Virus record (IMG/VR): IMGVR_UViG_3300014205_000010
Coordinates: 27,321-91,320 of that record
Direction: 5' to 3' (one strand)
Source of the DNA: a virus
Lineage: Duplodnaviria; Caudoviricetes
DNA length: 64,000 nt
A program made the translations under genes and the position numbers. The notes beneath the pieces are model-generated. The model was not told the origin of the DNA, searched no databases, and saw only the letters and a program-made list of their open reading frames with translations. Each line of letters opens with the position of its first letter. Position 1 is the stretch's first letter. Below are positions 13,090-55,001 of the stretch, piece after piece.

Positions 13090-13381
13090 ACATATAATCT
13101 GGCTTTACATAGAATTTGTTAATATCGTAGTCGGCAAGAAAAATCATAACACTACCATTGCCATGACGCCACACTGCCTTGGATCCCTGTCCAACATCCT
13201 CAATTTTAACTAGACCAGTGTTATCAATCACATCTATACCATGCTTGGTATAAAGTTTCATGATAATAAACGGACCTTCAATTGCTCCAGTATCAGCCTT
13301 CTTGAATAAGTGCATACCCATCTTGACTTCGCCAATTTTATTTAACATTCTGTATCTACTAGCCATTGAAATTCTCCTCAA
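13052..13381 (-). CDS. Hypothetical protein
   Basis: ORF coupled to neighbours. Confidence 0.5.
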   Translation of the reverse strand: MRRISMASRYRMLNKIGEVKMGMHLFKKADTGAIEGPFIIMKLYTKHGIDVIDNTGLVKIEDVGQGSKAVWRHGNGSVMIFLADYDINKFYVKPDYMYEVEPDAETTVE

Positions 13382-14447
13382 TTAATTTTCTTTTTTCAGT
13401 TCGATCTAAAGAACCGAACCAATCCATTATTCTGAGATTTTTCGCATACTCAGCGTACGGTCTGAGATCAATAAATTGTTTTCCTCGTCTAGGATTGGAT
13501 TCTCTTTGTAGGGTTCGTCTTGCACTTGCTCCGAGCCACTCTCCCATGAAGCAGGTGACAGCCTTCCCAGCCTGTGCATATTGATTTCCCACGTTTCCGA
13601 TAAATTCGAATTCATCTCCGTAACCAAAGATTCGAGCTTCTTCACGAACAGTGAGAAATCTGTCAAAGCTTGGGTGGATAATTGTAGGGCCGCCGGTGAT
13701 TGTGGGCCCAGGAGATCTCCAACTTGCTCTCCTAGTAGGACCGAAAGGTTGACCATATAGATTATCTCTAGCTGAGGGGAGTCTTCTCCAGATTTCCGAG
13801 GCTGTAAATCCAGGTGGAATATACTTCGCGATGGAAGCGACTTGCCCTGTGAATTTAGTTTTGTCATGATTCAGAAATTCTCCTTCTGCTATAAATTGTA
13901 AATCCCAGATAGCATCTTTTATTGTTGGAACTGGCATTGGATTAAATTTTGCCAGCTTAAAGTCGTATTTACTAGCTATATAATGAAATCTCGGTCTTAT
14001 CTGTGGGCTACCATGTAATACGCTATCGGAGAACAGATAAGTATGCTGATACTCATGGAAAATACTATCCAGGTCGGCGAGTATATCTTGACCTTTATTC
14101 CATAGGCCAGGAACAGACTCCATAATAAAAATATCGGTATCCAAAGCCATGGCAATATCAGCACACTCATACATACAGTTATTAATTGGGTCGTGTGAAC
14201 CACGATTAGCACCCATAACTGAAAAGGCTGAACATGGAGGATTTGCCACGACCAGATTAATATTTTTTGGTAAATAACTACCCCATTTATTCTTCGGATA
14301 TATTATCGGAAATGAAAAATTATGCCTGGCAGTCTCAAGGCCAAGACCAAGATTTTCGTACATGGCTTTTACTTCAAAACCAGCTCTTTGTATCCCAATT
14401 ATAAACGAGCCAGCAAAAATATGGACACCTACCGCTGTTAAGCTCAT
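13359..14447 (-). CDS. C5-cytosine DNA methyltransferase-like enzyme with atypical motifs
   Basis: Motif IV NPPCSAFS, VI ESVP, VIII PQIRPR, IX RFLTVREEARIFGY, X QAGKAV; motif I HIFAGSF. Confidence 0.85.
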   Translation of the reverse strand: MSLTAVGVHIFAGSFIIGIQRAGFEVKAMYENLGLGLETARHNFSFPIIYPKNKWGSYLPKNINLVVANPPCSAFSVMGANRGSHDPINNCMYECADIAMALDTDIFIMESVPGLWNKGQDILADLDSIFHEYQHTYLFSDSVLHGSPQIRPRFHYIASKYDFKLAKFNPMPVPTIKDAIWDLQFIAEGEFLNHDKTKFTGQVASIAKYIPPGFTASEIWRRLPSARDNLYGQPFGPTRRASWRSPGPTITGGPTIIHPSFDRFLTVREEARIFGYGDEFEFIGNVGNQYAQAGKAVTCFMGEWLGASARRTLQRESNPRRGKQFIDLRPYAEYAKNLRIMDWFGSLDRTEKRKLIEENFNG

Positions 14448-15022: not shown

Positions 15023-16047
15023 ATAGCAGCCATTACCTGTTTTCTTATGTCAATTAAAGCTGCTCTATCTGATTTTAAGAAATCTGCAAATGCTTTGGCT
15101 CCTCTGTAATTGATACCATCATATTTATAGAATGCCCCTGACTGAGTAATAATGCCTGTAACACGCCCAGCTGCAATAATATCTTTGATTCTATCGATTT
15201 TGCCGTTGTAATAGAAATCAAATTCGGCTTCTTTTCCATGAGGGCCTCCGACTTTACATTTTCTTACTCTAGCCTTTACTGTATGACCAACCTGTGCTTC
15301 TTTGTTTTTTGGATTAACTGGAACAGATAGATACGATGGTATATCATTCGGTTTTATCCATTCGCCAGCCCTGAGTTCAATCCTGAGTGAAGCGAAGAAC
15401 TTAAGGCCTCTACCACCTGGTTGAAAATCTCCTGCTCTGGGCCCACCGATAGTACTTCTATTTTGATTAATTATGACGATTGCTGTGTTGTGGTTTCTTG
15501 CATTAATTCTCTTGAATCCGAGGTTATTAACTCTAGCATCAACTGCCATGTGCGTTTGCATGTCATTATCTGTGATGGCCATAGGAGCGAACGCGGTAAG
15601 AGAATCAAGAATGATGAGGTCAACTGGCTCAAAGTCATGATACTCCTTGCTCCTTGGATTACCTAGATTAATAGCCTTGAATAGGATATCAAATCCTTCT
15701 TCAGATTCTGCAATTTGAGATACAACCAACCTAGATACATCTACACCTAGAGTAGTCATCCATGCTGAATCGAAAGATTTTTCTGCATCTACCCATAAGC
15801 ATGTCATTTTCTTTTTCTGAGCTTCTACGATAATTTTGGCTGCGATAGCTGATTTACCAGCTGACTCATTGCCAAATATCTCGGTTGTCTTACCCATTGG
15901 GATTCCACCATTAGTTGCCCAATCTAAAAAGAGAGATCCAGTTGATATTCTATTTACCTCTTGCTTTTGCCAATCTGATCCAAGGAAAATCGAATCGGCC
16001 CCGTGTTCTTTTTGTATGATTGCTATGAGGTCGCTAATACTTGTCAT
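15019..16047 (-). CDS. recA: RecA/UvsX-like recombinase
   Basis: ISTGSLFLD, Walker A GNESAGKS, DAEKS, IILDS, INQNR, PGGRGLKFFASLRI. Confidence 0.95.
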   Translation of the reverse strand: MTSISDLIAIIQKEHGADSIFLGSDWQKQEVNRISTGSLFLDWATNGGIPMGKTTEIFGNESAGKSAIAAKIIVEAQKKKMTCLWVDAEKSFDSAWMTTLGVDVSRLVVSQIAESEEGFDILFKAINLGNPRSKEYHDFEPVDLIILDSLTAFAPMAITDNDMQTHMAVDARVNNLGFKRINARNHNTAIVIINQNRSTIGGPRAGDFQPGGRGLKFFASLRIELRAGEWIKPNDIPSYLSVPVNPKNKEAQVGHTVKARVRKCKVGGPHGKEAEFDFYYNGKIDRIKDIIAAGRVTGIITQSGAFYKYDGINYRGAKAFADFLKSDRAALIDIRKQVMAAI

Positions 16048-16616
16048 GATTTTTTAGGCTTAGGAAGCATATCTAACGGAGTCCATTCAGCTCGAGTTTT
16101 TCCATATCTTCCAGTGTATTGAGATTCAGTAAGACCAACATTATGGAAAGTAATTTGAGCTATTCTCTCTCCGACTTCAATTGATACGTCAAAGTCAGAA
16201 TCATTAGTCATTTCCATAGTCCAGCGAGATACATAACCAACATCGCCAAGACCAGCACATTTACACACCGAGAGACAGTGTCTACCTGTCGTGGATTTAG
16301 CTTTCATCTCAGTGGTAATGATATTCATACCACCAATGAATTCCTCGGTGTGGCAGAGGATAGTCTCACGCGCTCTGACAACGATCAACTCATCCGCCTT
16401 TATAGGCTTATCCCACATTAAATTGAAAGCATCAGAGGTGCCATAGCGAATTGTAGGCCTTCCAGCATAATATTGTTTTTGCCTAAAAAACCATTCTCCG
16501 AGTCTAACGTCGTATGAATTTGAATTTAACTGGCTATTAAAATATGGGTCAATCAGAATATTTCCTTCTTCCATTTGACCCTTGATTTCTGCATCACTTA
16601 ACATTGAGTGCCTCAT
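16044..16616 (-). CDS. dcd: dCTP deaminase
   Basis: MLSDAEI, NSYDVRLG, AKSTTGR, DVGY..RWTMEM, GERIAQI, YTGRY. Confidence 0.85.
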   Translation of the reverse strand: MRHSMLSDAEIKGQMEEGNILIDPYFNSQLNSNSYDVRLGEWFFRQKQYYAGRPTIRYGTSDAFNLMWDKPIKADELIVVRARETILCHTEEFIGGMNIITTEMKAKSTTGRHCLSVCKCAGLGDVGYVSRWTMEMTNDSDFDVSIEVGERIAQITFHNVGLTESQYTGRYGKTRAEWTPLDMLPKPKKS

Positions 16617-19236
16617 TCTTTCTGAGAATTACAAAAGCTCCTGCTTCTTCTAATGCAGCAACAGCTCTTGAATTTAATTTTCTCTTGACTACTCTTGATT
16701 CGAAATCTTCGAAAGAAATAAATGGTCTCTTAGTTATAATTTCTTCTAGACCAGCTGGTCCAACTCCTTTTACTGTTCCTAATCCGAACCTTATAGAGCC
16801 ATTGTCAAGAGTATATGATTTACCGGATTTATTAATATCAACTCTTCTGATTGGAATTCCTAATCTCTTTGCTTCAGTAACTAACTTATATTGTTTTTCT
16901 TCTTCTATTGTATGGGCAAGTGAAGCAGACATAAACTCAGCTGGATAATGAACCTTCATATACATAGTCCAGTATGATATGAAAGCATAAGCGCATGAAT
17001 GAGATCGGTTAAATCCATATCTTGCAAACGAAAGAATCTGATCCCATAAGGCAGAAGCATCTACTTGATCCATGTTATTCTGTACTGCGCCTCTAACGAA
17101 TTTCTTTCTGAGAATATTTAATTCATCATCTCTGTGTAATTTAACTTGTTCTGACTTTTTAACAATATCTTTTCTGAGTTTTTCTGCATCCGCAAGAGAC
17201 ATATTAGCAAGTTTAGAAGCTAACTCTGTCATCTGTTCTTGATATGTAATAACCCCGTAAGTTCTTCCTAAGACCTGTTCAACAGCAGGGTGCTTGAATT
17301 CATATGTTTCTCTACCAAGTTTTCTTGAGGCGTAGACTTTGTCCATACCCACGTCTCTAGGACCTGGCCTACAGAGAGCACCCGCTGCAATGAGGTCTTC
17401 AAACTCTGTGGGTCTGATGTCTCGCAAAGTTCTTCCAGCGGCATATGCCTCAAACTGGAAAATACCAGTGTAATTACCCCTCTGGAATTCTTTATAGACT
17501 TTACGGTCATCGATTGGATAATCATACACAGAAGTATTTGTAAGCTGTTCACATTCTCTGAGAATTGAGAGGGTGTTAAGTCCAAGAAGGTCAAACTTAA
17601 TAAAACCCATTTCTGATAATTCTTTTGATTCTCCTTCCTGCCAAGCAGACAATAAATCTCCACCGTATCTGATAACGGGGAGAGTTCCATTCGCATCGAC
17701 AGCAAATCCGGCGGCGTGACGGCCCATTTGCCTGATAGAGCCGTGTAGTCTATCCAGACTTTCTCTAATCTGTGGATTTCCATTAAAAATGATTTGAACT
17801 TCAGGGACATTATCTGCTATTTCCTCAATAGTCTCAGCCCAATCTGGTAAGGCTGGCAGTCTAACATCTATCTCCCAAACTCGTATCAAATCTCTGATGA
17901 GGTTTCTATTCTGAAATGTTCCATAAGCAGGAATTTGAAATACTTTTTCTCCATACCTACTTTTTAGTCTATCCATGACTTCGACTCTTCTGTCTCTAGG
18001 AAAGTCTACATCAATATCTGGATACCCTATTCTATCTTTGGTTAGAAATCGCTCAAACATTAAATCGAATTTTATCGGATCTATCGTAGTAATAGAGAGT
18101 AACCAAGATACGATACTGCCAGCAGCAGAACCACGACCTGGACCGACGAATATATCATTTCTCTTAGCCCAGTGAATAAGATCTGCAACGACCAGGAAAT
18201 AGTTTGCGAAACCTTTTTCATTGATTACACCTAGTTCTCTGTCCAATCTATCTTTATATACAGAAAACTCATCAGCTGGTATAATGCCTTCGCCACTCCA
18301 AATGTTTAGCTTCTTATAGCAGAATCCCTTAAGCCATTCTTCTGGTGTTTTATCTTTTACGAATGGTGGAATAGGCAAATTAGGTTCTTCAATTGGACTG
18401 AATTTTTCTATTCTATCAGCTATTAAATCTGTTTCTTGAATAGCCTGTAATGCTCTATCTTCAGATATTCCACCATATTTTTTGGCCCAAACAAGCATTT
18501 CTTTTTCTGTTTTAAGATATAAACCATGAGTAGATTCCCAACCATCACCTCTTTCAGAGGCAATAGTAGTTTTACGAATAATCGCGAGAAGAGTTGTGCG
18601 ATATTTTGCCCAACCTTTTCTTGGATAATGACAATCATTCGTAGCTACAAGAGGAATACCACTCTTGTCAGACAACTTTATCAGAAACTTATTAATTGTT
18701 TGTTGCTGTTCTAATTCGTTAAATTGGATCTCGAGATAAAGTCGGTCTCCAAAGATAGTTCTGAGTCTCTTGAATCGCTGAATAGCCAACTCTCTATCGC
18801 GTTGTCGAATGAGCCCATCTCCAATTGGGCCTTGAACGCATCCAGTGAGGCATATAATACCTTCTTTGTACTGTTCAAGGACTGACCAGTCAATTCTTGG
18901 CCTATTATAGAAACCTGTAATGTGACCTTCATTTGTCGCCTTAATTAAATTGTGATATCCTTCTCTGTTTATAGCCAACAGAGTAAGATGCATTCTTTCT
19001 TCGCCAGGAGATTTAACTAACCTATCTTCTACGAAATAAACTTCACAACCGAAAATTGGTTTAATATCTTGTTGATTACAGGCTAACCAAAATCTAGGAA
19101 ATCCTCCTAGAGTTCCATGATCTGTAATAGCTAGGGCTTTTTGGCCAAATTCAGTGGCTGTCTTAGCCCATTCTTCTACCCGGCAGATAGCATCACCGAT
19201 AGAATATTCTGTATGAACATGTAGGTTAGTTACCAT
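16594..19236 (-). CDS. dnaE: DNA polymerase III alpha subunit (family C) with intact PHP domain and shortened C-terminus
   Basis: HVHTEYS, TDHG, NDCHY, GRGSAAGS, PDIDVDF, KFDLLGL, YGFNRSHS. Confidence 0.95.
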   Translation of the reverse strand: MVTNLHVHTEYSIGDAICRVEEWAKTATEFGQKALAITDHGTLGGFPRFWLACNQQDIKPIFGCEVYFVEDRLVKSPGEERMHLTLLAINREGYHNLIKATNEGHITGFYNRPRIDWSVLEQYKEGIICLTGCVQGPIGDGLIRQRDRELAIQRFKRLRTIFGDRLYLEIQFNELEQQQTINKFLIKLSDKSGIPLVATNDCHYPRKGWAKYRTTLLAIIRKTTIASERGDGWESTHGLYLKTEKEMLVWAKKYGGISEDRALQAIQETDLIADRIEKFSPIEEPNLPIPPFVKDKTPEEWLKGFCYKKLNIWSGEGIIPADEFSVYKDRLDRELGVINEKGFANYFLVVADLIHWAKRNDIFVGPGRGSAAGSIVSWLLSITTIDPIKFDLMFERFLTKDRIGYPDIDVDFPRDRRVEVMDRLKSRYGEKVFQIPAYGTFQNRNLIRDLIRVWEIDVRLPALPDWAETIEEIADNVPEVQIIFNGNPQIRESLDRLHGSIRQMGRHAAGFAVDANGTLPVIRYGGDLLSAWQEGESKELSEMGFIKFDLLGLNTLSILRECEQLTNTSVYDYPIDDRKVYKEFQRGNYTGIFQFEAYAAGRTLRDIRPTEFEDLIAAGALCRPGPRDVGMDKVYASRKLGRETYEFKHPAVEQVLGRTYGVITYQEQMTELASKLANMSLADAEKLRKDIVKKSEQVKLHRDDELNILRKKFVRGAVQNNMDQVDASALWDQILSFARYGFNRSHSCAYAFISYWTMYMKVHYPAEFMSASLAHTIEEEKQYKLVTEAKRLGIPIRRVDINKSGKSYTLDNGSIRFGLGTVKGVGPAGLEEIITKRPFISFEDFESRVVKRKLNSRAVAALEEAGAFVILRKNEALNVK

Positions 19237-19272: not shown

Positions 19273-20217
19273 TTAATACCATTCTAGATGTTTTAACAAA
19301 ATTGAGTATGACCCACAAATAGAAGTATCTATTGTAATATCAGGATTTCTTCTAATCCTGTAATATAGAAGAGTAGATAGCATGTCTTTAACAGTATCAT
19401 CTTCATCTATTGATAGTATTTCCTCAAGAGTCTTGTGCAATTCTTCAGTAGTAAAATCTGTTTTTCGTATTTTATACTCAAGAGTTGATACTCTGTGTAT
19501 GTTTGAAATTAGAGACGTCTTTGTGCTTTCTTGAAAACTAATGATTTTTGGTTCTTCATCTACTATCTGATTAAGAATTTTTACATTACTCTCATATGCA
19601 TGAAGCGAGCCACATATATGAGTATATGTTCCTACACCAAGTGATGTTTGATTTGCTACAATTTCTAGAAGTGAAGCCCAATGATAGAAATCATATGGAA
19701 GGCCTAGATATATATCTTGAGATCTAACGTATACTACAAGATCTAACCATTCACCTCGTGGCAAGAAATGTAACATGATATTACATGGAAAGTCCTTCGT
19801 ATTAACCGTCTGATCTCTTGGCTGATAAATTGTAGCAACTGCTTGTCTTGTACTCTTATCTAGGTTTATTTTATTGATGATGCTCGGTATCTGTCTCATC
19901 AACCTTGGGCCATAAGCTCCATGTAGGGTTCTTCCATCATCAGAAAACTCCCACATCTTCTTGTTATAAAAGCCAATCATGTCTGCTCTGTTATTTTGTG
20001 TAGTTATCCACAAATATTCTGCAATCATGAAGTATGGATTTATTCTTCTGACTTTATTAGTTATAATTTTACTAGTCGGATTTTCCACAACTATAGATGT
20101 AGGCCCGATGTCTAATGTTGGAATACCTCTAGGAGAATATCTTGCTCCATGATCTAGAATATATTTTATTATTTCTGGATATATTGTTTCAATGTCCTCT
20201 GCATCAAATACTTCCAA
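19273..20217 (-). CDS. Thymidylate-synthase-family enzyme, dCMP-type (hydroxymethylase/methylase/hydroxylase)
   Basis: GAYGPR, DFPCN catalytic Cys, RSQD...GLPYD (Asp at the ThyA Asn177 position), SLHAYE. Confidence 0.85.
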   Translation of the reverse strand: MEVFDAEDIETIYPEIIKYILDHGARYSPRGIPTLDIGPTSIVVENPTSKIITNKVRRINPYFMIAEYLWITTQNNRADMIGFYNKKMWEFSDDGRTLHGAYGPRLMRQIPSIINKINLDKSTRQAVATIYQPRDQTVNTKDFPCNIMLHFLPRGEWLDLVVYVRSQDIYLGLPYDFYHWASLLEIVANQTSLGVGTYTHICGSLHAYESNVKILNQIVDEEPKIISFQESTKTSLISNIHRVSTLEYKIRKTDFTTEELHKTLEEILSIDEDDTVKDMLSTLLYYRIRRNPDITIDTSICGSYSILLKHLEWY

Positions 20218-21334
20218 TGTTTACGTCCTTTATAAACTTCTCGACGATATTGTCTATAGAGAATTTATTTCGAAAAAACTTTCCTTGCTCTTCTTGAGCA
20301 TATGGCCCAAAATCTAAAAGTCGTTTAATATTTGTAACTGCACCCATCGTGGTTACATATTCATTTTCTTTTGGAAAGAACCATTCTTTAGTCATTTCAG
20401 CATAACCAGCAAACTTAGGGAATATACATCTTAGTCCAAGAGAGAGTCCTTCGCCCATGCTCATAGACCACTGGCCTGGGTAATCGAAGAGTGTTAAGTG
20501 CACCCATCCCTTGGAAATGTGTGTCAAATATTCTTCATAGCTGTTGGTAACTGAATTTATTACCTTTGGATGATTTAAGATTGGGTGAGCTTTTCCACTC
20601 GGATTAGTAATGATTATCTTTAGACCTGGTACATGTAATCTATCTAAGATTCGTTCAAGGCTACTGATAGCATTAGCATATTGTGGAGCTGAAGATAGTC
20701 TGTGATTGTAGATCAACGTCGGATAGTCATTCTTAATGGCTATTTTAGCGATTGATCCTATGAGTTCAGTGTTGAGCGGAGGGTTAATAATAAGAGGCTT
20801 GGCTTGAGGAGGTTTAAGTCCATTTATAAGTCGCAATCCTCCTAGATATCTTTCATATCCAGTCTGAGAATTGAATGCAATATAATCAGCTTTCCATGCT
20901 GCTTCAATTTGTCTGAAGAAATAAGAATTTTTCAGTTCTATTACTGGATTATCTGGACTATCTATCCAGTGATTATAGGCAATAATTATTCCGTCATATA
21001 CTGACCTATATTGACCAACTCTGCATGGATCATTAGTCCATAAAATATCTGGATTTTCTTTGTTTATAACTTTCTTGACATAATTATCAACAAAGAATCT
21101 ATCCTGAACTATACCATGAAAATCTACATAATACAATACAGCATTTGGCATAGATTGATAACCGTCGCCAATACGCTGTTCATCCCATGGCATCAGAATA
21201 ACACATTCATGGCCTCTTTTAGAAAGGCCTTCTATCATGCTTTTCATGAAGATATAATTACTGTCTGATGTAATTAAAAGTTTTCCATCAATGTCTAAGC
21301 TGCTAATCTGCAGATCGAACAGAATTTTTACCAT
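20204..21334 (-). CDS. GT-B fold glycosyltransferase (putative DNA glycosyltransferase)
   Basis: GLSKRGHEC, NPDILW, IAFNS, YNHR, WSMSMGEGLSLG...P (GT4-like acidic/Gly motif). Confidence 0.7.
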   Translation of the reverse strand: MVKILFDLQISSLDIDGKLLITSDSNYIFMKSMIEGLSKRGHECVILMPWDEQRIGDGYQSMPNAVLYYVDFHGIVQDRFFVDNYVKKVINKENPDILWTNDPCRVGQYRSVYDGIIIAYNHWIDSPDNPVIELKNSYFFRQIEAAWKADYIAFNSQTGYERYLGGLRLINGLKPPQAKPLIINPPLNTELIGSIAKIAIKNDYPTLIYNHRLSSAPQYANAISSLERILDRLHVPGLKIIITNPSGKAHPILNHPKVINSVTNSYEEYLTHISKGWVHLTLFDYPGQWSMSMGEGLSLGLRCIFPKFAGYAEMTKEWFFPKENEYVTTMGAVTNIKRLLDFGPYAQEEQGKFFRNKFSIDNIVEKFIKDVNIGSI

Positions 21335-21854
21335 TAGAATTTATCCAGCCTATAATTCTATCAATTTTATCTGTAGTTGGTTTAAAAGTCATATAATCTA
21401 GGCCTTCTTCAAAACCAAGTTTTTTCAACATTGTATTATACTCTGTTATGATAGGTATAATATATTCTGTTGGTTTATCCTCTGCTCTCCATCTTTCAAC
21501 TATAGTTTCTATTTCTTCTATAACCAGAATGAGCTTAATAACATCCTTGTTCTGTCTCATTTGTTTTTCATACCAAGGAAAATCACAAGCTCGGCCAAAT
21601 ACCTTGGCATAAACTAATTCACTGAATGAAAACCTATCTAGAATAAAATCTTTATATGCATTTACTTCTCTGGCAAGTTTAATTATTTTTTCACAGTCTT
21701 CTTTGCCTCTTCGAAATTCTCTTATAGTTTCCCATCCATTTTCTGAAGGCCTTGGGACTGTTAATACTTTAAAATTATATGGATCACCAGAAAGTGTTGT
21801 CAGAAGTGTAGTTTTGCCTACGCGATCTATTCCTTCAAGTACAAATGCGGTCAT
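21303..21854 (-). CDS. dNMP kinase (thymidylate kinase-like)
   Basis: P-loop LEGIDRVGKTT; ILDRFSFSELVY. Confidence 0.85.
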   Translation of the reverse strand: MTAFVLEGIDRVGKTTLLTTLSGDPYNFKVLTVPRPSENGWETIREFRRGKEDCEKIIKLAREVNAYKDFILDRFSFSELVYAKVFGRACDFPWYEKQMRQNKDVIKLILVIEEIETIVERWRAEDKPTEYIIPIITEYNTMLKKLGFEEGLDYMTFKPTTDKIDRIIGWINSNGKNSVRSAD

Positions 21855-22951
21855 AGAAAAGTTGCTCTCCTAGAAGATAATTGTTCTGCCTCAGCATTCA
21901 TTTTATAGTATCTGGATGGTCCACTACTACACATTCTACATATCTCGTTTTGATCATTAATATGTTCAGCAGCTATTCTTTCAATGTTTTCTTTTGTCAT
22001 TATCCGTAACAACGGAGTATCATATATATTTCCGTATGAGTACTTCATATCTCGCTGATCGAAAGGAAGATTATCTCCGACGAGATAGCAACAAGGAAAT
22101 ACTGAACCATCAGTATCTATAAAAGCATGCAGATATGGAATAACACAGTTTTTTGGGTCTACTGGAGATACTTTGTCTCCATTTGTTATAATTTGGCGTA
22201 CGTTAGTATATCTGTCTATCCAATCACTAAAATCTGAGGTATTACCAAATAAATTTGCCAGGTCATAGCGAAGTTTAAGTACCTGTTGTTCTGTAACTAC
22301 GTTATAGTCATGAACAAAATACCCATAAATTGGTATCTGATTATCATAGCATTTTTTTACCATAAGCGGAAATTCTTCTATGTTTTCTGACTGTATGGTG
22401 TACTGAACTCTAACCTTATCTAAACCAGCTTCGCTATAGAGTCGCACGAATTCATTCTTAACAAAAGCTGCATTTACAAAAGCAGTTTCATATGAATTTG
22501 GGTGTGAACCTCTAATTTTTGCCCAAGTTTGTGGTGTAGCTCCGTCTATAGAAAACCTGATAAATCCGAATTTAGTCAAATCCAGATCAACATATCTATT
22601 GGTAGAATTATCAAGACCAGTAGTAAACATCCCAAGTTTTATCTCTGGTTTAATGTGATCAATGAGAGCTTTGAGATGAACATAATTCATTGGGTCTCCA
22701 CCAGATAAAACAATAGTTTCAAGATCTGGTAGGCTATTAAGCTCTCTTACGGCTAATTCAACTTGAATGACATTTTTGCTACCGGCTTGAATAGCTGCCC
22801 ATTCTGGTTTATGACACATAATACATTTTTGTGGGCATGTATTCGTGACATTAAGCTGAACTGAAACAAGGTGTGGTTCTTGTCTTTTTATCCATGATTC
22901 ATACATAGTAACATATTGCGGCATTATTCTATTATAACCACCTATATACAA
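21851..22951 (-). CDS. Radical SAM enzyme with SPASM/Twitch domain
   Basis: CPQKCIMC, SGGDP, FSIDG, C..PY...IDTDGSVFPCC...GNI...CRMC. Confidence 0.9.
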   Translation of the reverse strand: MYIGGYNRIMPQYVTMYESWIKRQEPHLVSVQLNVTNTCPQKCIMCHKPEWAAIQAGSKNVIQVELAVRELNSLPDLETIVLSGGDPMNYVHLKALIDHIKPEIKLGMFTTGLDNSTNRYVDLDLTKFGFIRFSIDGATPQTWAKIRGSHPNSYETAFVNAAFVKNEFVRLYSEAGLDKVRVQYTIQSENIEEFPLMVKKCYDNQIPIYGYFVHDYNVVTEQQVLKLRYDLANLFGNTSDFSDWIDRYTNVRQIITNGDKVSPVDPKNCVIPYLHAFIDTDGSVFPCCYLVGDNLPFDQRDMKYSYGNIYDTPLLRIMTKENIERIAAEHINDQNEICRMCSSGPSRYYKMNAEAEQLSSRRATFL

Positions 22952-22960
22952 GATGTAAAT

Positions 22961-23641
22961 TTATATTCTTGAAGAAATTGTATTCATGATGGCTTTATAA
23001 GCTCTTTCGTTTTCAGTTACGAATTCTAATTTCTTCATAGCAGCTATAGTTCTATCAGTATGTCTGTATCTTTCATATGCTGGATGATACATTGTCATGT
23101 ATAATCCACTATAATATTCTCTTGACATGTATAGAATTTTGTTTCTAATTCTGTCTGTTGTTATAAATGGATCTTTTTGGTGTGTTTGATCAAAAAACCA
23201 TGAATGCGCCAAATTTCCCAGGGATAAAATCGCCCAGGGATCTATTAGTCTGATTTGATCTTCAAGCCACTCCCTGCAATTATATACTTCTTCATGGGTA
23301 GGCAATGAGTTATCTGGAGTTCTACACTTTATGATATTTGTTAGTGCCCAGACAGTATCCTCTGAAAACCCTTGCTTTAACCACTCGCCAATAGGGGCCT
23401 CCATGAGACCCCTTGCATATCCTTGCTGGAACCTGCGCCACTGTTCTTCTTCTGCGTATGAATTGTCATCCCAACCAGAAGCTCTTTTACTTAACTGTCC
23501 TGGATTTTGTGCAACAACCAAAATCTTGGCATCTTTTGGAAAAAACCCAGGCATGCTAGCGAATTGAAACCTAGGACAAGTCCTACATTTCCATATTCGC
23601 TGATTTAACTCTTTCAACGGCGATTGGGTTACCTTCGGCAA
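22961..23641 (-). CDS. Uracil-DNA-glycosylase superfamily protein (family 4/5-like, Fe-S)
   Basis: CRTC, VAQNPG, TNIIKCRTPDN...C, YHPAY. Confidence 0.8.
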   Translation of the reverse strand: MPKVTQSPLKELNQRIWKCRTCPRFQFASMPGFFPKDAKILVVAQNPGQLSKRASGWDDNSYAEEEQWRRFQQGYARGLMEAPIGEWLKQGFSEDTVWALTNIIKCRTPDNSLPTHEEVYNCREWLEDQIRLIDPWAILSLGNLAHSWFFDQTHQKDPFITTDRIRNKILYMSREYYSGLYMTMYHPAYERYRHTDRTIAAMKKLEFVTENERAYKAIMNTISSRI

Positions 23642-23972
23642 CTTGTCTATCCCAGTTCATTCTAATTTTGGTGAGAATCCACTCTGTAGCTTCATCAGCT
23701 TCTATTCCAAGGATGAGAAGCATGTTAACAGAGAAGATGAAGCAATCAACGGCTTCCTCGATTTGTTTGTCTCGATTGTGAGGCCGCGCTCTCTTGGACA
23801 CTTTCCAATTGAATTCATCTCTATACTCGAATGCTTCTCTTGCTAGGCCCGTAGAAAGATAATCTGCGATCTTGTCGAGATATTGAGGATCCTCGCTGAC
23901 TTTTTTGAAGTCAACGAAGAGAGCCTCAAATTCTTTCTGGACCTTGAAGATTTCTCCAAGGCCTTCAGCCAT
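23583..23972 (-). CDS. All-alpha dimeric dUTPase/dCTPase (MazG-like)
   Basis: REAFEY..E.NWK...EEAVDCFIF. Confidence 0.8.
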   Translation of the reverse strand: MAEGLGEIFKVQKEFEALFVDFKKVSEDPQYLDKIADYLSTGLAREAFEYRDEFNWKVSKRARPHNRDKQIEEAVDCFIFSVNMLLILGIEADEATEWILTKIRMNWDRQVAEGNPIAVERVKSANMEM

Positions 23973-24853
23973 TAATCATCGTCCTCGAGATCGAAGTCTT
24001 CATCGTCTTCGTCCTCGTCTTCTTCATCTTCATCATCCTCAGATTCTTCATCATCCTCGTCCTCATCCTCAGCCTCCTCATCCTCATCATCATCTTCTTC
24101 ATCTTCCTCGTCTTCTTCTTCGTCCTCTTCTTCATCTTCTTCAGGAGGAGGCGCAGCCTTCTTAGATGGCCGCTTCTTTTCACGAATTGGAGCTACTTCA
24201 GGTTCTTCATCATCTTCTTCATCATCTTCAGGTTCTTCTACTGGAGCAGCTCTTCGCTTAGGTGGAGTTTCTTTTGCTACGGTTTTAACTTTTCTAGTAA
24301 CAGCGGTCTCATCAGTAAGACGCCTTCTAGGTTCTTTCTTTTTTGGCTCAGGCGCAGAAAACAACTCTACAAGATCATATTTTTCCTTGTATAGCTTCAG
24401 ATCAACTGCATCCATTTTCTTAACAGCTCTAGGAGTGAACTGATATCTAGTGCCTTGCCCTTCACCAGTCTTTTTAACTCTATAATCTCGATCATGAATG
24501 TTTCCATATTCATCGACGAATTCAAGAATGCTTTGTGCATGACTTGCTGCGATGGAGAATACCTTGCAAATACCATCAGCTCTGTCAATTACATTAAATG
24601 CATAATATTCACCTGGTCGATTTTCAGCCTCGCAAAATTCGCACTGACCATCCAATTCTTCAGTATCATCTTGACAGAGTCTATACTTCTTGTCAATATA
24701 ATGTTGCCTGAAGAAAACAACATCATCTTCAGTCCTAACAAGAAAACGTACAACTACGATCTTGTTGGCTTCAACCTTAAGGTACTTGGCCGATGGGCCT
24801 CGTTCTGCTCTCGTTCTGAGAGCCGTCCATCCCTTACTTGCCATTATATCCAA
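23972..24853 (-). CDS. Single-stranded DNA-binding protein with very long acidic tail
   Basis: VRFL, H..C..CEFC, YAFNVIDR, RDYRVKKTGEGQGTRY; about 55-residue D/E tail. Confidence 0.75.
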   Translation of the reverse strand: MDIMASKGWTALRTRAERGPSAKYLKVEANKIVVVRFLVRTEDDVVFFRQHYIDKKYRLCQDDTEELDGQCEFCEAENRPGEYYAFNVIDRADGICKVFSIAASHAQSILEFVDEYGNIHDRDYRVKKTGEGQGTRYQFTPRAVKKMDAVDLKLYKEKYDLVELFSAPEPKKKEPRRRLTDETAVTRKVKTVAKETPPKRRAAPVEEPEDDEEDDEEPEVAPIREKKRPSKKAAPPPEEDEEEDEEEDEEDEEDDDEDEEAEDEDEDDEESEDDEDEEDEDEDDEDFDLEDDD

Positions 24854-54290: not shown

Positions 54291-55001
54291 TTAGTCATGA
54301 TGCTCCTTTCTGATATGCGAATCTCTTGCATCCCATGCCTCTCGATCATCTCTACAGGCCAATACCCAATCGCAATGAGGACAGTCAGCCTTAGAGATGT
54401 CTAAATTTACTACTTTAGAATTAGGTTGGGCCATATCTTCAGTGGATCTCAATACTTCGACAAACTCCCTGACCTTTGGATCGGCTAATTTATTTCGAAG
54501 CCTAAGAGCCTGATGCCATGCATCGCTAACTGCGTAATGAGGAACCCAGTCAGGATCGTCAACTGATTCTCCAGGAAGGAAGAATCGATCGATTGTCCGA
54601 AGGTCAAGGACATCACGATACTTCCAAGGAGTACTCCTTCCAAGCGTCCGATAGGCATTGTCAAGAATGATGGTATCAAAGGTCTTGTGACACCACACTC
54701 CTTGGATCCCTCTCGAAAACGAAGATAGAATATCTAAAGCTTGTGGTAGCTTATGCCAGCCATGCTGAAGAACTTCTCTAGCCTGATCAGATTGCTTTAG
54801 CCACCACATAATTGTCTTGCCGTCAACCTTCAGTCCATGGTCCATGCAGTCTTGAAGGTCAACATTCAAGTAAAGAGTATCTTCTCCGATAGCTACTAGC
54901 GATTTTGGGTTCATATCGAATCGGACTGCTCCGATTGCTACGATAGCAGCGTTAGGATTCGATCCCATTGTCTCGAGATCGATCATTATCTGGTCTTTCA
55001 T
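54291..55001 (-). CDS. DEDDh 3'-5' exonuclease (exonuclease VIII / Rv2179c-like)
   Basis: MIDLETMG, FDTIILD, DLRTI, HYAVSDA.HQA. Confidence 0.85.
   Translation of the reverse strand: MKDQIMIDLETMGSNPNAAIVAIGAVRFDMNPKSLVAIGEDTLYLNVDLQDCMDHGLKVDGKTIMWWLKQSDQAREVLQHGWHKLPQALDILSSFSRGIQGVWCHKTFDTIILDNAYRTLGRSTPWKYRDVLDLRTIDRFFLPGESVDDPDWVPHYAVSDAWHQALRLRNKLADPKVREFVEVLRSTEDMAQPNSKVVNLDISKADCPHCDWVLACRDDREAWDARDSHIRKEHHD

Follow-up and report, generated by a model that had tools for sequence, protein, structure and literature searches.

The T-even phages make glucosylated 5-hydroxymethylcytosine (glucosyl-5hmC) with a set of proteins that includes the dCTPase gp56, the dCMP hydroxymethylase gp42, the dNMP kinase gp1, cd and the alpha- and beta-glucosyltransferases, and phages RB69 and DLP3 have an arabinosyl-5-hydroxycytosine pathway (Lee et al., NAR 2026, PMC13326640). 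A third system, the 5-NedU pathway of Pseudomonas phage M6, includes a radical S-adenosylmethionine (SAM) isomerase, gp53 (PMC8989533). It is the only published case of a radical SAM enzyme in DNA base hypermodification that we found; a cytosine-modification pathway with such an enzyme was not found in the literature. The subject of this paper is a block of six genes at positions 19273-23972 of a 64,000-nucleotide stretch of phage DNA (the window), which encode a thymidylate synthase (TS) homologue, a glycosyltransferase (GT), a nucleotide kinase, a radical SAM enzyme, a uracil-DNA glycosylase (UDG)-like protein and an NTP pyrophosphatase (NTPase). We consider it rather likely that the block specifies a T-even-style, pre-replicative replacement of cytosine, which is followed by glycosylation of the DNA and by one extra radical step.

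The window corresponds to bases 27321-91320 of a 91,320-bp IMG/VR virus record from an uncultured phage; the record has direct terminal repeats and is estimated to be complete. Six minus-strand open reading frames (ORFs) fill the block and their ends overlap or nearly abut. The order of transcription is a single-stranded DNA-binding protein (SSB)-like gene, NTPase, UDG-like, radical SAM, kinase, GT, TS homologue, DnaE, dCTP deaminase (Dcd), RecA/UvsX, an HNH-like gene and a C5 DNA methyltransferase. An earlier note, made from the letters alone, had described six tightly coupled genes inserted between SSB and DnaE. The coupling and the position are real, but the word inserted has to be dropped because modules of this kind also stand immediately before the polymerase genes of distant relatives. 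A nucleotide search with the block found no match among GenBank phages. The six genes are as follows.

23583-23972, minus strand: all-alpha NTP pyrophosphatase, MazG/dimeric-dUTPase/DCTPP1-like (Pfam, PHROG, family profile)
22961-23641, minus strand: family-4-type Fe-S UDG-like protein (Pfam, NCBIfam, PDB 4zbx)
21851-22924 (ORF to 22951), minus strand: radical SAM enzyme of 357 aa with a twitch-like SPASM C-terminal domain (Pfam, AlphaFold model)
21303-21854, minus strand: thymidylate-kinase-like nucleotide kinase (P-loop, PHROG 761, family profile)
20204-21334, minus strand: GT-B glycosyltransferase, GT4-like, with a retaining-type fold (AlphaFold model, structural matches)
19273-20217, minus strand: TS homologue with a dCMP hydroxymethylase signature (PF00303, active-site residues)

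Pfam support is strong for the TS homologue, for the radical SAM and SPASM domains and for the UDG-like protein, and weak for the GT, the kinase and the NTPase.

The TS homologue bears on the identity of the base. Recent work on this enzyme family indicates that the N177D change confers specificity for cytosine (dCMP), that an acidic residue at position 143 (L143D/E) leads to a hydroxymethyl product and that D169N marks the 5-hydroxy-dCMP synthases, Asn being present in every 5-hydroxycytosine (5hoC) synthase tested (PMC13326640). In addition, a Ser/Arg pair as opposed to Ala/Lys separates the dCMP users from the CMP users, such as MilA with Ala176 and Lys133 (PMC5175136). The protein encoded here matches PF00303 at 3.4e-24, and its translation contains KDFPC, RSQDIYLGLPYD and the motif GLPYD. 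Its active-site residues are C145, D142 (at the L143 position), D168 (D169), D176 (N177), S166 (S167) and R124 (R126). An alignment with canonical TS places Asp142 opposite Leu143 and Asp176 opposite Asn177. The best PDB match is MilA (1e-26), which also has Asp at the 177 position; in this alignment Ser166 lies opposite Ala176 and Arg124 opposite Lys133, within RSQD and TRQA as against RAND and SKRA of MilA. When the protein was aligned by MAFFT with T4 gp42 and SPO1 gp29, positions 143/146/169/177 read D-C-D-D in both the TS homologue and gp42, and D-C-D-N in gp29. The Asp of GLPYD, which the earlier note had pointed out at the Asn177 position of ThyA, thus aligns with the Asp of gp42.

The signature is not peculiar to this phage. 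The catalytic Cys145 of KDFPC is kept in 121 of the 121 proteins compared, and all but one of the 120 database homologues listed have Asp at position 177. The closest relatives from cultured phages by overall similarity are SPO1 gp29 and the SP-10 and phage G homologues, and on its sequence the protein is a member of a large, mostly metagenomic, cytosine-type branch. It has the TS fold with the catalytic Cys, Asp177, an acidic residue at 143 and the deoxyribose-type Ser/Arg pair; Asn169 of the RB69 gp48 type is absent, Asp168 being kept in RSQD. Every position is as expected for a dCMP hydroxymethylase, and the sequence predicts dCMP hydroxymethylation. The substrate would be a deoxyribonucleotide rather than CMP because Ser166 and Arg124 are dCMP-type residues, and the predicted base is 5hmC, not 5-methylcytosine (5mC) or 5hoC, because the L143 position is Asp and D169 is kept. 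Of the three C5-modified forms of dCTP first proposed for this phage (hmC, mC or hydroxy-C), only the first fits the signature. The marks of thymidine hypermodification, i.e., a hydroxymethylase with Asn177, a 5-HMUDK kinase and an aGPT-Pplase, are missing: the synthase has Asp177, the family profile of the kinase finds nucleotide kinases, and no cluster gene matched the aGPT-Pplase family in Pfam, PHROG or NCBIfam scans. The TS homologue also has a C-terminal extension of about 90 aa (residues ~226-314; window 19273-19540, minus strand) that is absent from T4 gp42. This extension is conserved in the clade, with Y285, Y286, R289 and W313 invariant, and it is partly common to SPO1 gp29 and phage G gp319.

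For the GT, the Pfam value of 6.3e-5 is below the cut-off, i.e., the family is not captured by Pfam, and the protein has no homologue among GenBank phages. However, an AlphaFold model made from ten orthologues (pLDDT, the predicted local distance difference test, 84.6) has a GT-B fold with an NDP-sugar-binding C-terminal domain. Its best structural matches (VIA) are 6kih (Z 31.2), MshA 3c4q (29.0), BshA 3mbo (27.9) and PimA 2gej (27.3), all of them GT4 retaining enzymes, and Foldseek matches the model to the T4 alpha-glucosyltransferase 1y6f at 1e-10. The proven DNA arabinosyltransferases of RB69 and DLP3 have 6kih, 3c4q, 3mbo and 2gej as PDB neighbours, too (PMC13326640). We predict that the protein is a DNA 5hmC glycosyltransferase; it is synteny alone that points to DNA as the acceptor, as the fold names none.

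Two small enzymes would serve nucleotide supply. The NTPase by itself gives marginal matches (Pfam dUTPase_2 at 1.7e-4 and PHROG 173 at 3.3e-7), and single-sequence PDB searches returned no match for it and nothing useful for the kinase, so that family profiles were needed. A profile of nine synthase-linked NTPase homologues matches dCTP pyrophosphatase 1 (6sqw, 7mu5) at 1.3e-5 and then dimeric dUTPases. The protein is 39% identical to T4 gp56 over 38 aa (pairwise E 5e-6) and has the gp56 C-terminal motif in common with it, and its acidic residues E46, E49, E73 and D76 are invariant. It is predicted to be a dCTPase in the role of T4 gp56 and is probably a dUTPase as well. In the kinase, EGIDRVGKTT is a P-loop of the thymidylate-kinase type, and an LDRF motif is present. 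The protein matches Pfam at 2.9e-4 and PHROG 761 at 5.4e-9; a profile built from its family finds SPbeta YorR (7e-17) and thymidylate kinases (1e-7). Its predicted function is that of a 5hm-dCMP kinase.

The same kinds of genes occur together in other uncultured phages. A metagenome scan with the synthase alignment gave 80 loci. In 43 loci of at least 8 kb, the region up to 8 kb from the synthase was examined with iterated hidden Markov models (HMMs). Near-duplicates occur among the 43 loci, and so the following counts are not independent.

Kinase family: 26 of the 43 loci
NTPase family: 18 of the 43 loci
UDG-like family: 10 of the 43 loci
GT family: 4 of the 43 loci
Radical SAM: 0 of the 43 loci

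The GT family has a member next to the synthase, UDG or kinase gene in each of L005, L007, L006, L012, L016 and L018. In the short contigs L005 and L007 it adjoins the synthase; it was recognized in L006 and L012 by hhalign (97.5% and 98.5%) and in L016 and L018 by HMM search. Three of the loci illustrate the pattern.

L012:7209-12566: kinase, GT, UDG, NTPase, synthase, PolA, RecA
L006:6437-12753: NDP-sugar epimerase/dehydratase, kinase, GT, UDG, synthase, PolA, dCMP deaminase
L035:4794-10822: kinase, UDG, methyltransferase, UDP-galactopyranose mutase, 354-aa ORF, synthase, DnaE, RecA

Since GT, synthase, UDG, kinase, NTPase and polymerase genes stand together in several loci, the GT family is part of a recurring nucleotide and replication module in unrelated metagenomic phages. 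The module has a variable slot for sugar-nucleotide enzymes, which in this phage is filled by the radical SAM gene.

The wider scan displays some other patterns. The different sugar enzymes in the L035 and L006 modules suggest that there are many distinct glycosyl-hmC chemistries. The synthases at L072:9959-11119 and L082:9959-11119 read D-C-D-N, the signature of a dUMP hydroxymethylase, and they adjoin a DnaE that is 31% identical to that of this phage; judged by these residues, thymine rather than cytosine is probably the modified base in the phages related through L072 and L082. A D-C-N-D synthase, of the 5-hydroxy-C type, is encoded in four other loci, and C5-methyltransferase-like genes adjoin Asp-type synthases in L028, L032, L038, L045 and L079. 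A scan of viral_contigs with the synthase alone returned nothing, and with the synthase alignment, one distant locus. L087 was considered as a second pairing of a radical SAM gene with a TS gene and was rejected; its TS is a canonical ThyA beside DHFR.

The radical SAM enzyme is the rare member of the block. It matches Radical_SAM (PF04055) at 5.7e-10 and SPASM (PF13186) at 3.4e-11, and the cluster motif CX3CX2C reads CPQKCIMC within a partial TIM barrel. The ORF extends to a TTG at 22951; the orthologues, however, start at the position of the ATG at 22924, which is probably the real start and gives 357 aa as in all of them. Five Cys are conserved in the C-terminal part (C260, C278, C279, C329 and C332), fewer than the seven or eight, with two auxiliary clusters, of a full SPASM domain. 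Five suffice for one auxiliary cluster and, therefore, the domain is twitch-like. An AlphaFold model (pLDDT 79.4) has as its closest structural neighbours (VIA) BlsE (Z 21.4 over 298 residues), SkfB (21.2), DesII (20.5) and MoaA (20.5), which are tied; further matches include CteB, SuiB, anSME (Z 19) and viperins (Z 17). There is no N-terminal RRE domain, no adjacent peptide gene and no second radical SAM gene in the genome. The short interval from the stop codon of the UDG-like gene to the ATG of the radical SAM gene contains the sequence TTTACA-17-TATAAT (window 22931-22959, minus strand), which agrees with the sigma-70 consensus at 11 of 12 positions. Promoter-like and terminator-like sites in the region are not enriched over shuffles and so this one may be due to chance.

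About ten orthologues, 55-62% identical, were found among 5.8 billion clusters. They apparently share four long contigs (89784, 65726, 34653 and 11033 bp) with the orthologues of the synthase and of the GT, which points to a small clade that would keep the three genes together. Beyond these orthologues the searches say little about function. A profile search returned thousands of generic SPASM relatives with uninformative architectures, and where distant homologues are fused to other domains (TPR, TIR, tandem radical SAM), these offer no functional clue. The Atlas search found generic radical SAM clusters only, the cluster names of the nearest non-orthologous homologues being generic as well, and the radical SAM alignment gave only distant or partial matches in viral_contigs and genome_contigs. 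The protein has one weak match among GenBank phages, 24% identical, in L095. At that locus (L095:3478-12423, from the human-faecal phage contig MT836080.1) a SPASM radical SAM gene lies amid five GT4 genes and a gene for a DUF6169 protein.

As to the reaction, the substrate of DesII is a TDP-deoxysugar. BlsE acts on cytosylglucuronic acid, in which a sugar is attached to cytosine (PMC3715490). Tailoring of a sugar is the most likely role for the enzyme, a view we hold tentatively, because BlsE and DesII are among the neighbours, because of the GT4 context in L095 and because of the variable-slot argument.

The UDG-like protein matches Pfam UDG at 4.2e-16, the NCBIfam type-4 UDG at 2.9e-21 and PDB 4zbx at 2e-13. 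It has the four Cys (C19, C22, C106 and C122) and the motif B, HPA, of family 4. Its motif A, however, is AQNPG, as against GEAPG in 4zbx and GE(A/G)PG in family 4. In the synthase-linked homologues the motif is GINPG (L012 and L006), GQSPG, GDAPG or GEAPG. MUG/TDG and SMUG1, enzymes that excise uracil and 5-hydroxymethyluracil (5hmU) opposite G, have this motif in the form xNPG, and that form would fit repair of deaminated hmC, or of uracil where Dcd raises dUTP. The Fe-S glycosylase was at first thought to suggest an unusual final base. That idea is weakened: UDG-like genes are common in the modules, most of which lack any radical SAM gene, and so the protein is more likely to be repair or replisome-associated than a sign of such a base.

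The neighbours of the block, together with some genes elsewhere in the window that bear on nucleotide and sugar supply, are as follows.

16594-19236, minus strand: DnaE-type DNA polymerase, directly downstream of the block (Pfam PHP, DNA_pol3_alpha, finger and HHH_6; PHROG 405 at 3e-273)
16044-16616, minus strand: dCTP deaminase, Dcd (PF22769 at 6.7e-30; TIGR02274 at 4.1e-25)
23972-24853, minus strand: SSB-like protein, upstream of the block (PHROG SSB families only, 1.5e-9 to 3e-4; no Pfam match)
13359-14447, minus strand: C5 cytosine DNA methyltransferase (PF00145 at 8.6e-27)
55558-56229, minus strand: ThyX, flavin-dependent thymidylate synthase (PF02511 at 1.9e-37)
56214-57242, minus strand: RmlB-like NDP-hexose 4,6-dehydratase (TIGR01181 at 1.4e-84, below its cut-off; GDP_Man_Dehyd at 1.3e-54)
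54291-55001, minus strand: Rv2179c-like 3'-5' exoribonuclease domain protein, near ThyX (2.3e-34)

The RmlB-like gene overlaps the end of ThyX, adjoins an M23 peptidase gene and lies 32 kb from the cluster. The enzyme may supply a sugar donor for glycosylation of DNA or of the virion; its link to the cluster is putative.

The genes of the block, their folds, the synteny and the signature of the synthase active site are observations; the substrates and products in the following pathway are all inferred. The DCTPP1/gp56-like NTPase would convert dCTP to dCMP, and probably dUTP to dUMP, while Dcd would also drain dCTP towards dUTP and dUMP. The TS homologue would then convert dCMP to 5-hydroxymethyl-dCMP with methylenetetrahydrofolate, the thymidylate-kinase-like enzyme would form the diphosphate, the host nucleoside diphosphate kinase would form 5hm-dCTP and the phage DnaE would incorporate it. 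Subsequently, the GT4-type GT-B enzyme would move a sugar from an NDP-sugar onto the 5-hydroxymethyl group in the DNA. Finally, the radical SAM/twitch enzyme would abstract a hydrogen from the sugar, whether this is still part of the NDP-sugar donor or has already been transferred, so that the sugar would be oxidised, dehydrated, decarboxylated or epimerised to yield an undescribed glycosyl-hmC derivative. The UDG-like protein would have no biosynthetic role; presumably it is a replisome-linked glycosylase that removes uracil, or 5hmU arising from deaminated hmC. The outline of a T-even-type pathway in the earlier note stands, as a dCMP-specific synthase, a nucleotide kinase, a dCTPase-like NTPase and a GT-B glycosyltransferase are all present. 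Its separate source of dTMP and its drain on dCTP were found as well, in ThyX (55558-56229) and Dcd (16044-16616), and it was right to place the radical SAM enzyme outside the textbook T4 pathway. That this enzyme remodels the sugar of glycosyl-5hmC, on the donor or on DNA, to give an undescribed deoxy, keto, decarboxylated or epimerised derivative is a possibility that we advance with less assurance than the pathway as a whole.

Several observations weigh against the proposed pathway. The C5 cytosine methyltransferase (13359-14447), which has the same orientation and lies downstream of RecA and an HNH/NUMOD3-like gene, would lack a substrate in DNA fully substituted with hmC. The head module contains a separate 11-kb GT/methyltransferase island, in which two GTs were confirmed, and the radical SAM enzyme or the RmlB-like enzyme could serve this island instead. 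The genome encodes no sugar nucleotidyltransferase and no DegT-type aminotransferase. None of the structural neighbours stands out for the radical SAM enzyme, as they fall within 1 Z unit of one another; the peptide-modifying SkfB, CteB and SuiB and the nucleotide-modifying MoaA are among them and, because of this tie, the fold selects no sugar substrate. Finally, the co-occurrence of the radical SAM, synthase and GT genes in the relatives was judged from equal contig sizes only.

The alternative that survives best is that the phage makes ordinary glycosyl-5hmC, as T4 does, and that the radical SAM enzyme is a passenger that serves in maturation of a protein or cofactor, or in synthesis of a virion glycan by the GT island of the head module. 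The absence of a radical SAM homologue near the synthase in the wider loci would agree with this explanation, as would the peptide maturases among the best structural matches and the presence of another large GT/methyltransferase island in the genome. However, the radical SAM gene lies inside the block and overlaps the kinase gene by 4 nt, its orthologues occur, to judge from the contig sizes, only together with synthase and GT orthologues, and the enzyme has neither an RRE domain nor a peptide gene nearby. On balance we regard the passenger explanation as unlikely.

A second alternative, which we consider quite improbable, is that the base or nucleotide, and not a sugar, is the substrate of the radical SAM enzyme, which would bring about either an oxygen-independent oxidation of the 5-hydroxymethyl group, as in anSME, or a MoaA- or viperin-like change to the nucleotide. 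The enzyme anSME converts the CH2OH of serine to an aldehyde. Together with MoaA and the viperins it is a good structural match, and the radical SAM gene adjoins that of a nucleotide kinase. Yet oxidation of the hydroxymethyl group would destroy the acceptor that the adjacent GT needs, and the related modules have sugar-nucleotide enzymes, rather than base-modifying ones, in that slot.

We give little credence to the idea that the synthase is a dCMP methylase of the XP12 type or a 5-hydroxy-dCMP synthase of the RB69 type, so that the base would be 5mC or glycosyl-5hoC. Asp177 is indeed common to all cytosine-specific TS homologues, and recent work has shown that glycosylated 5hoC is widespread (PMC13326640). 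Both forms were nevertheless rejected: position 143 is Asp and not a bulky hydrophobic residue, 5mC would offer the GT no hydroxyl, and position 169 is Asp where the tested 5hoC synthases carry Asn.

Least probable is that the GT acts on a protein, the cell wall or a small molecule, in the extreme by the nucleoside-antibiotic logic of MilA/MilC/MilG or BlsD/BlsE. In its favour, the PDB sequence closest to the synthase is that of MilA, the structure that ranks first for the radical SAM enzyme, albeit in a tie, is BlsE, and GT4 acceptors are very varied. Against it, the synthase has the deoxyribose-type Ser/Arg pair in place of the Ala/Lys of MilA, family scans of the cluster genes revealed no N-glycosidase of the MilB type and the GT family is embedded in replication modules (kinase, NTPase, polymerase) of several unrelated phages. 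The antibiotic reading was rejected on these grounds.

If the proposed glycosyl-5hmC pathway with its radical step is true, cytosine hypermodification would have its first radical SAM step, and phages would have a way to diversify the sugars on their DNA without oxygen. Which restriction, CRISPR and glycosylase-type defences a phage evades depends on its hypermodified bases, and these are also a source of enzymes for epigenetic sequencing and DNA labelling. Three predictions follow from the cluster: a new family of DNA glycosyltransferases that many uncultured phages have and that is tied to hmC; tailoring by a radical SAM enzyme, which is unreported for cytosine; and a recurrent Fe-S UDG-like partner with a MUG/TDG-like motif that may handle uracil or 5hmU in hmC genomes. 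The module pattern, i.e., kinase, GT, UDG, NTPase, synthase and polymerase with a variable slot for a sugar enzyme, is a search key for more glycosyl-cytosine chemistries.

Of the described systems, the T-even one is alike in its logic and its enzyme classes. The gp42 active-site signature, the gp56 C-terminal motif, a GT-B transferase and a deaminase route to dUMP are all found here. However, the kinase of this phage resembles thymidylate kinases and YorR rather than gp1, the GT is GT4-like and does not belong to the AGT/BGT family, Dcd and ThyX stand in for cd and td, a DnaE serves as the polymerase, and a radical SAM enzyme and a family-4 UDG have been added. The RB69/DLP3 pathway (PMC13326640) has in common with this block a synthase with N177D and an acidic residue at 143 and, within the cluster, a kinase that resembles thymidylate kinases. 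Its dCTPase is likewise DCTPP1-like, and its DNA glycosyltransferases are GT4-like and match the PDB entries that the GT matches here. The pathway differs in that its synthases have D169N and use flavin to make 5hoC, whereas this phage keeps D169, and in that it has neither a radical SAM enzyme nor a UDG. The M6 pathway (PMC8989533) differs in being a thymidine pathway (5hmU, 5-HMUDK, aGPT-Pplase), and gp53 is spore photoproduct lyase-like rather than SPASM/twitch and has an amino-acid adduct as its substrate. BlsE of blasticidin S and DesII of desosamine are the best structural matches to the radical SAM enzyme over nearly its full length; they differ from it in that the identity is 14%, they are tied with peptide and nucleotide enzymes, and they act on free metabolites.

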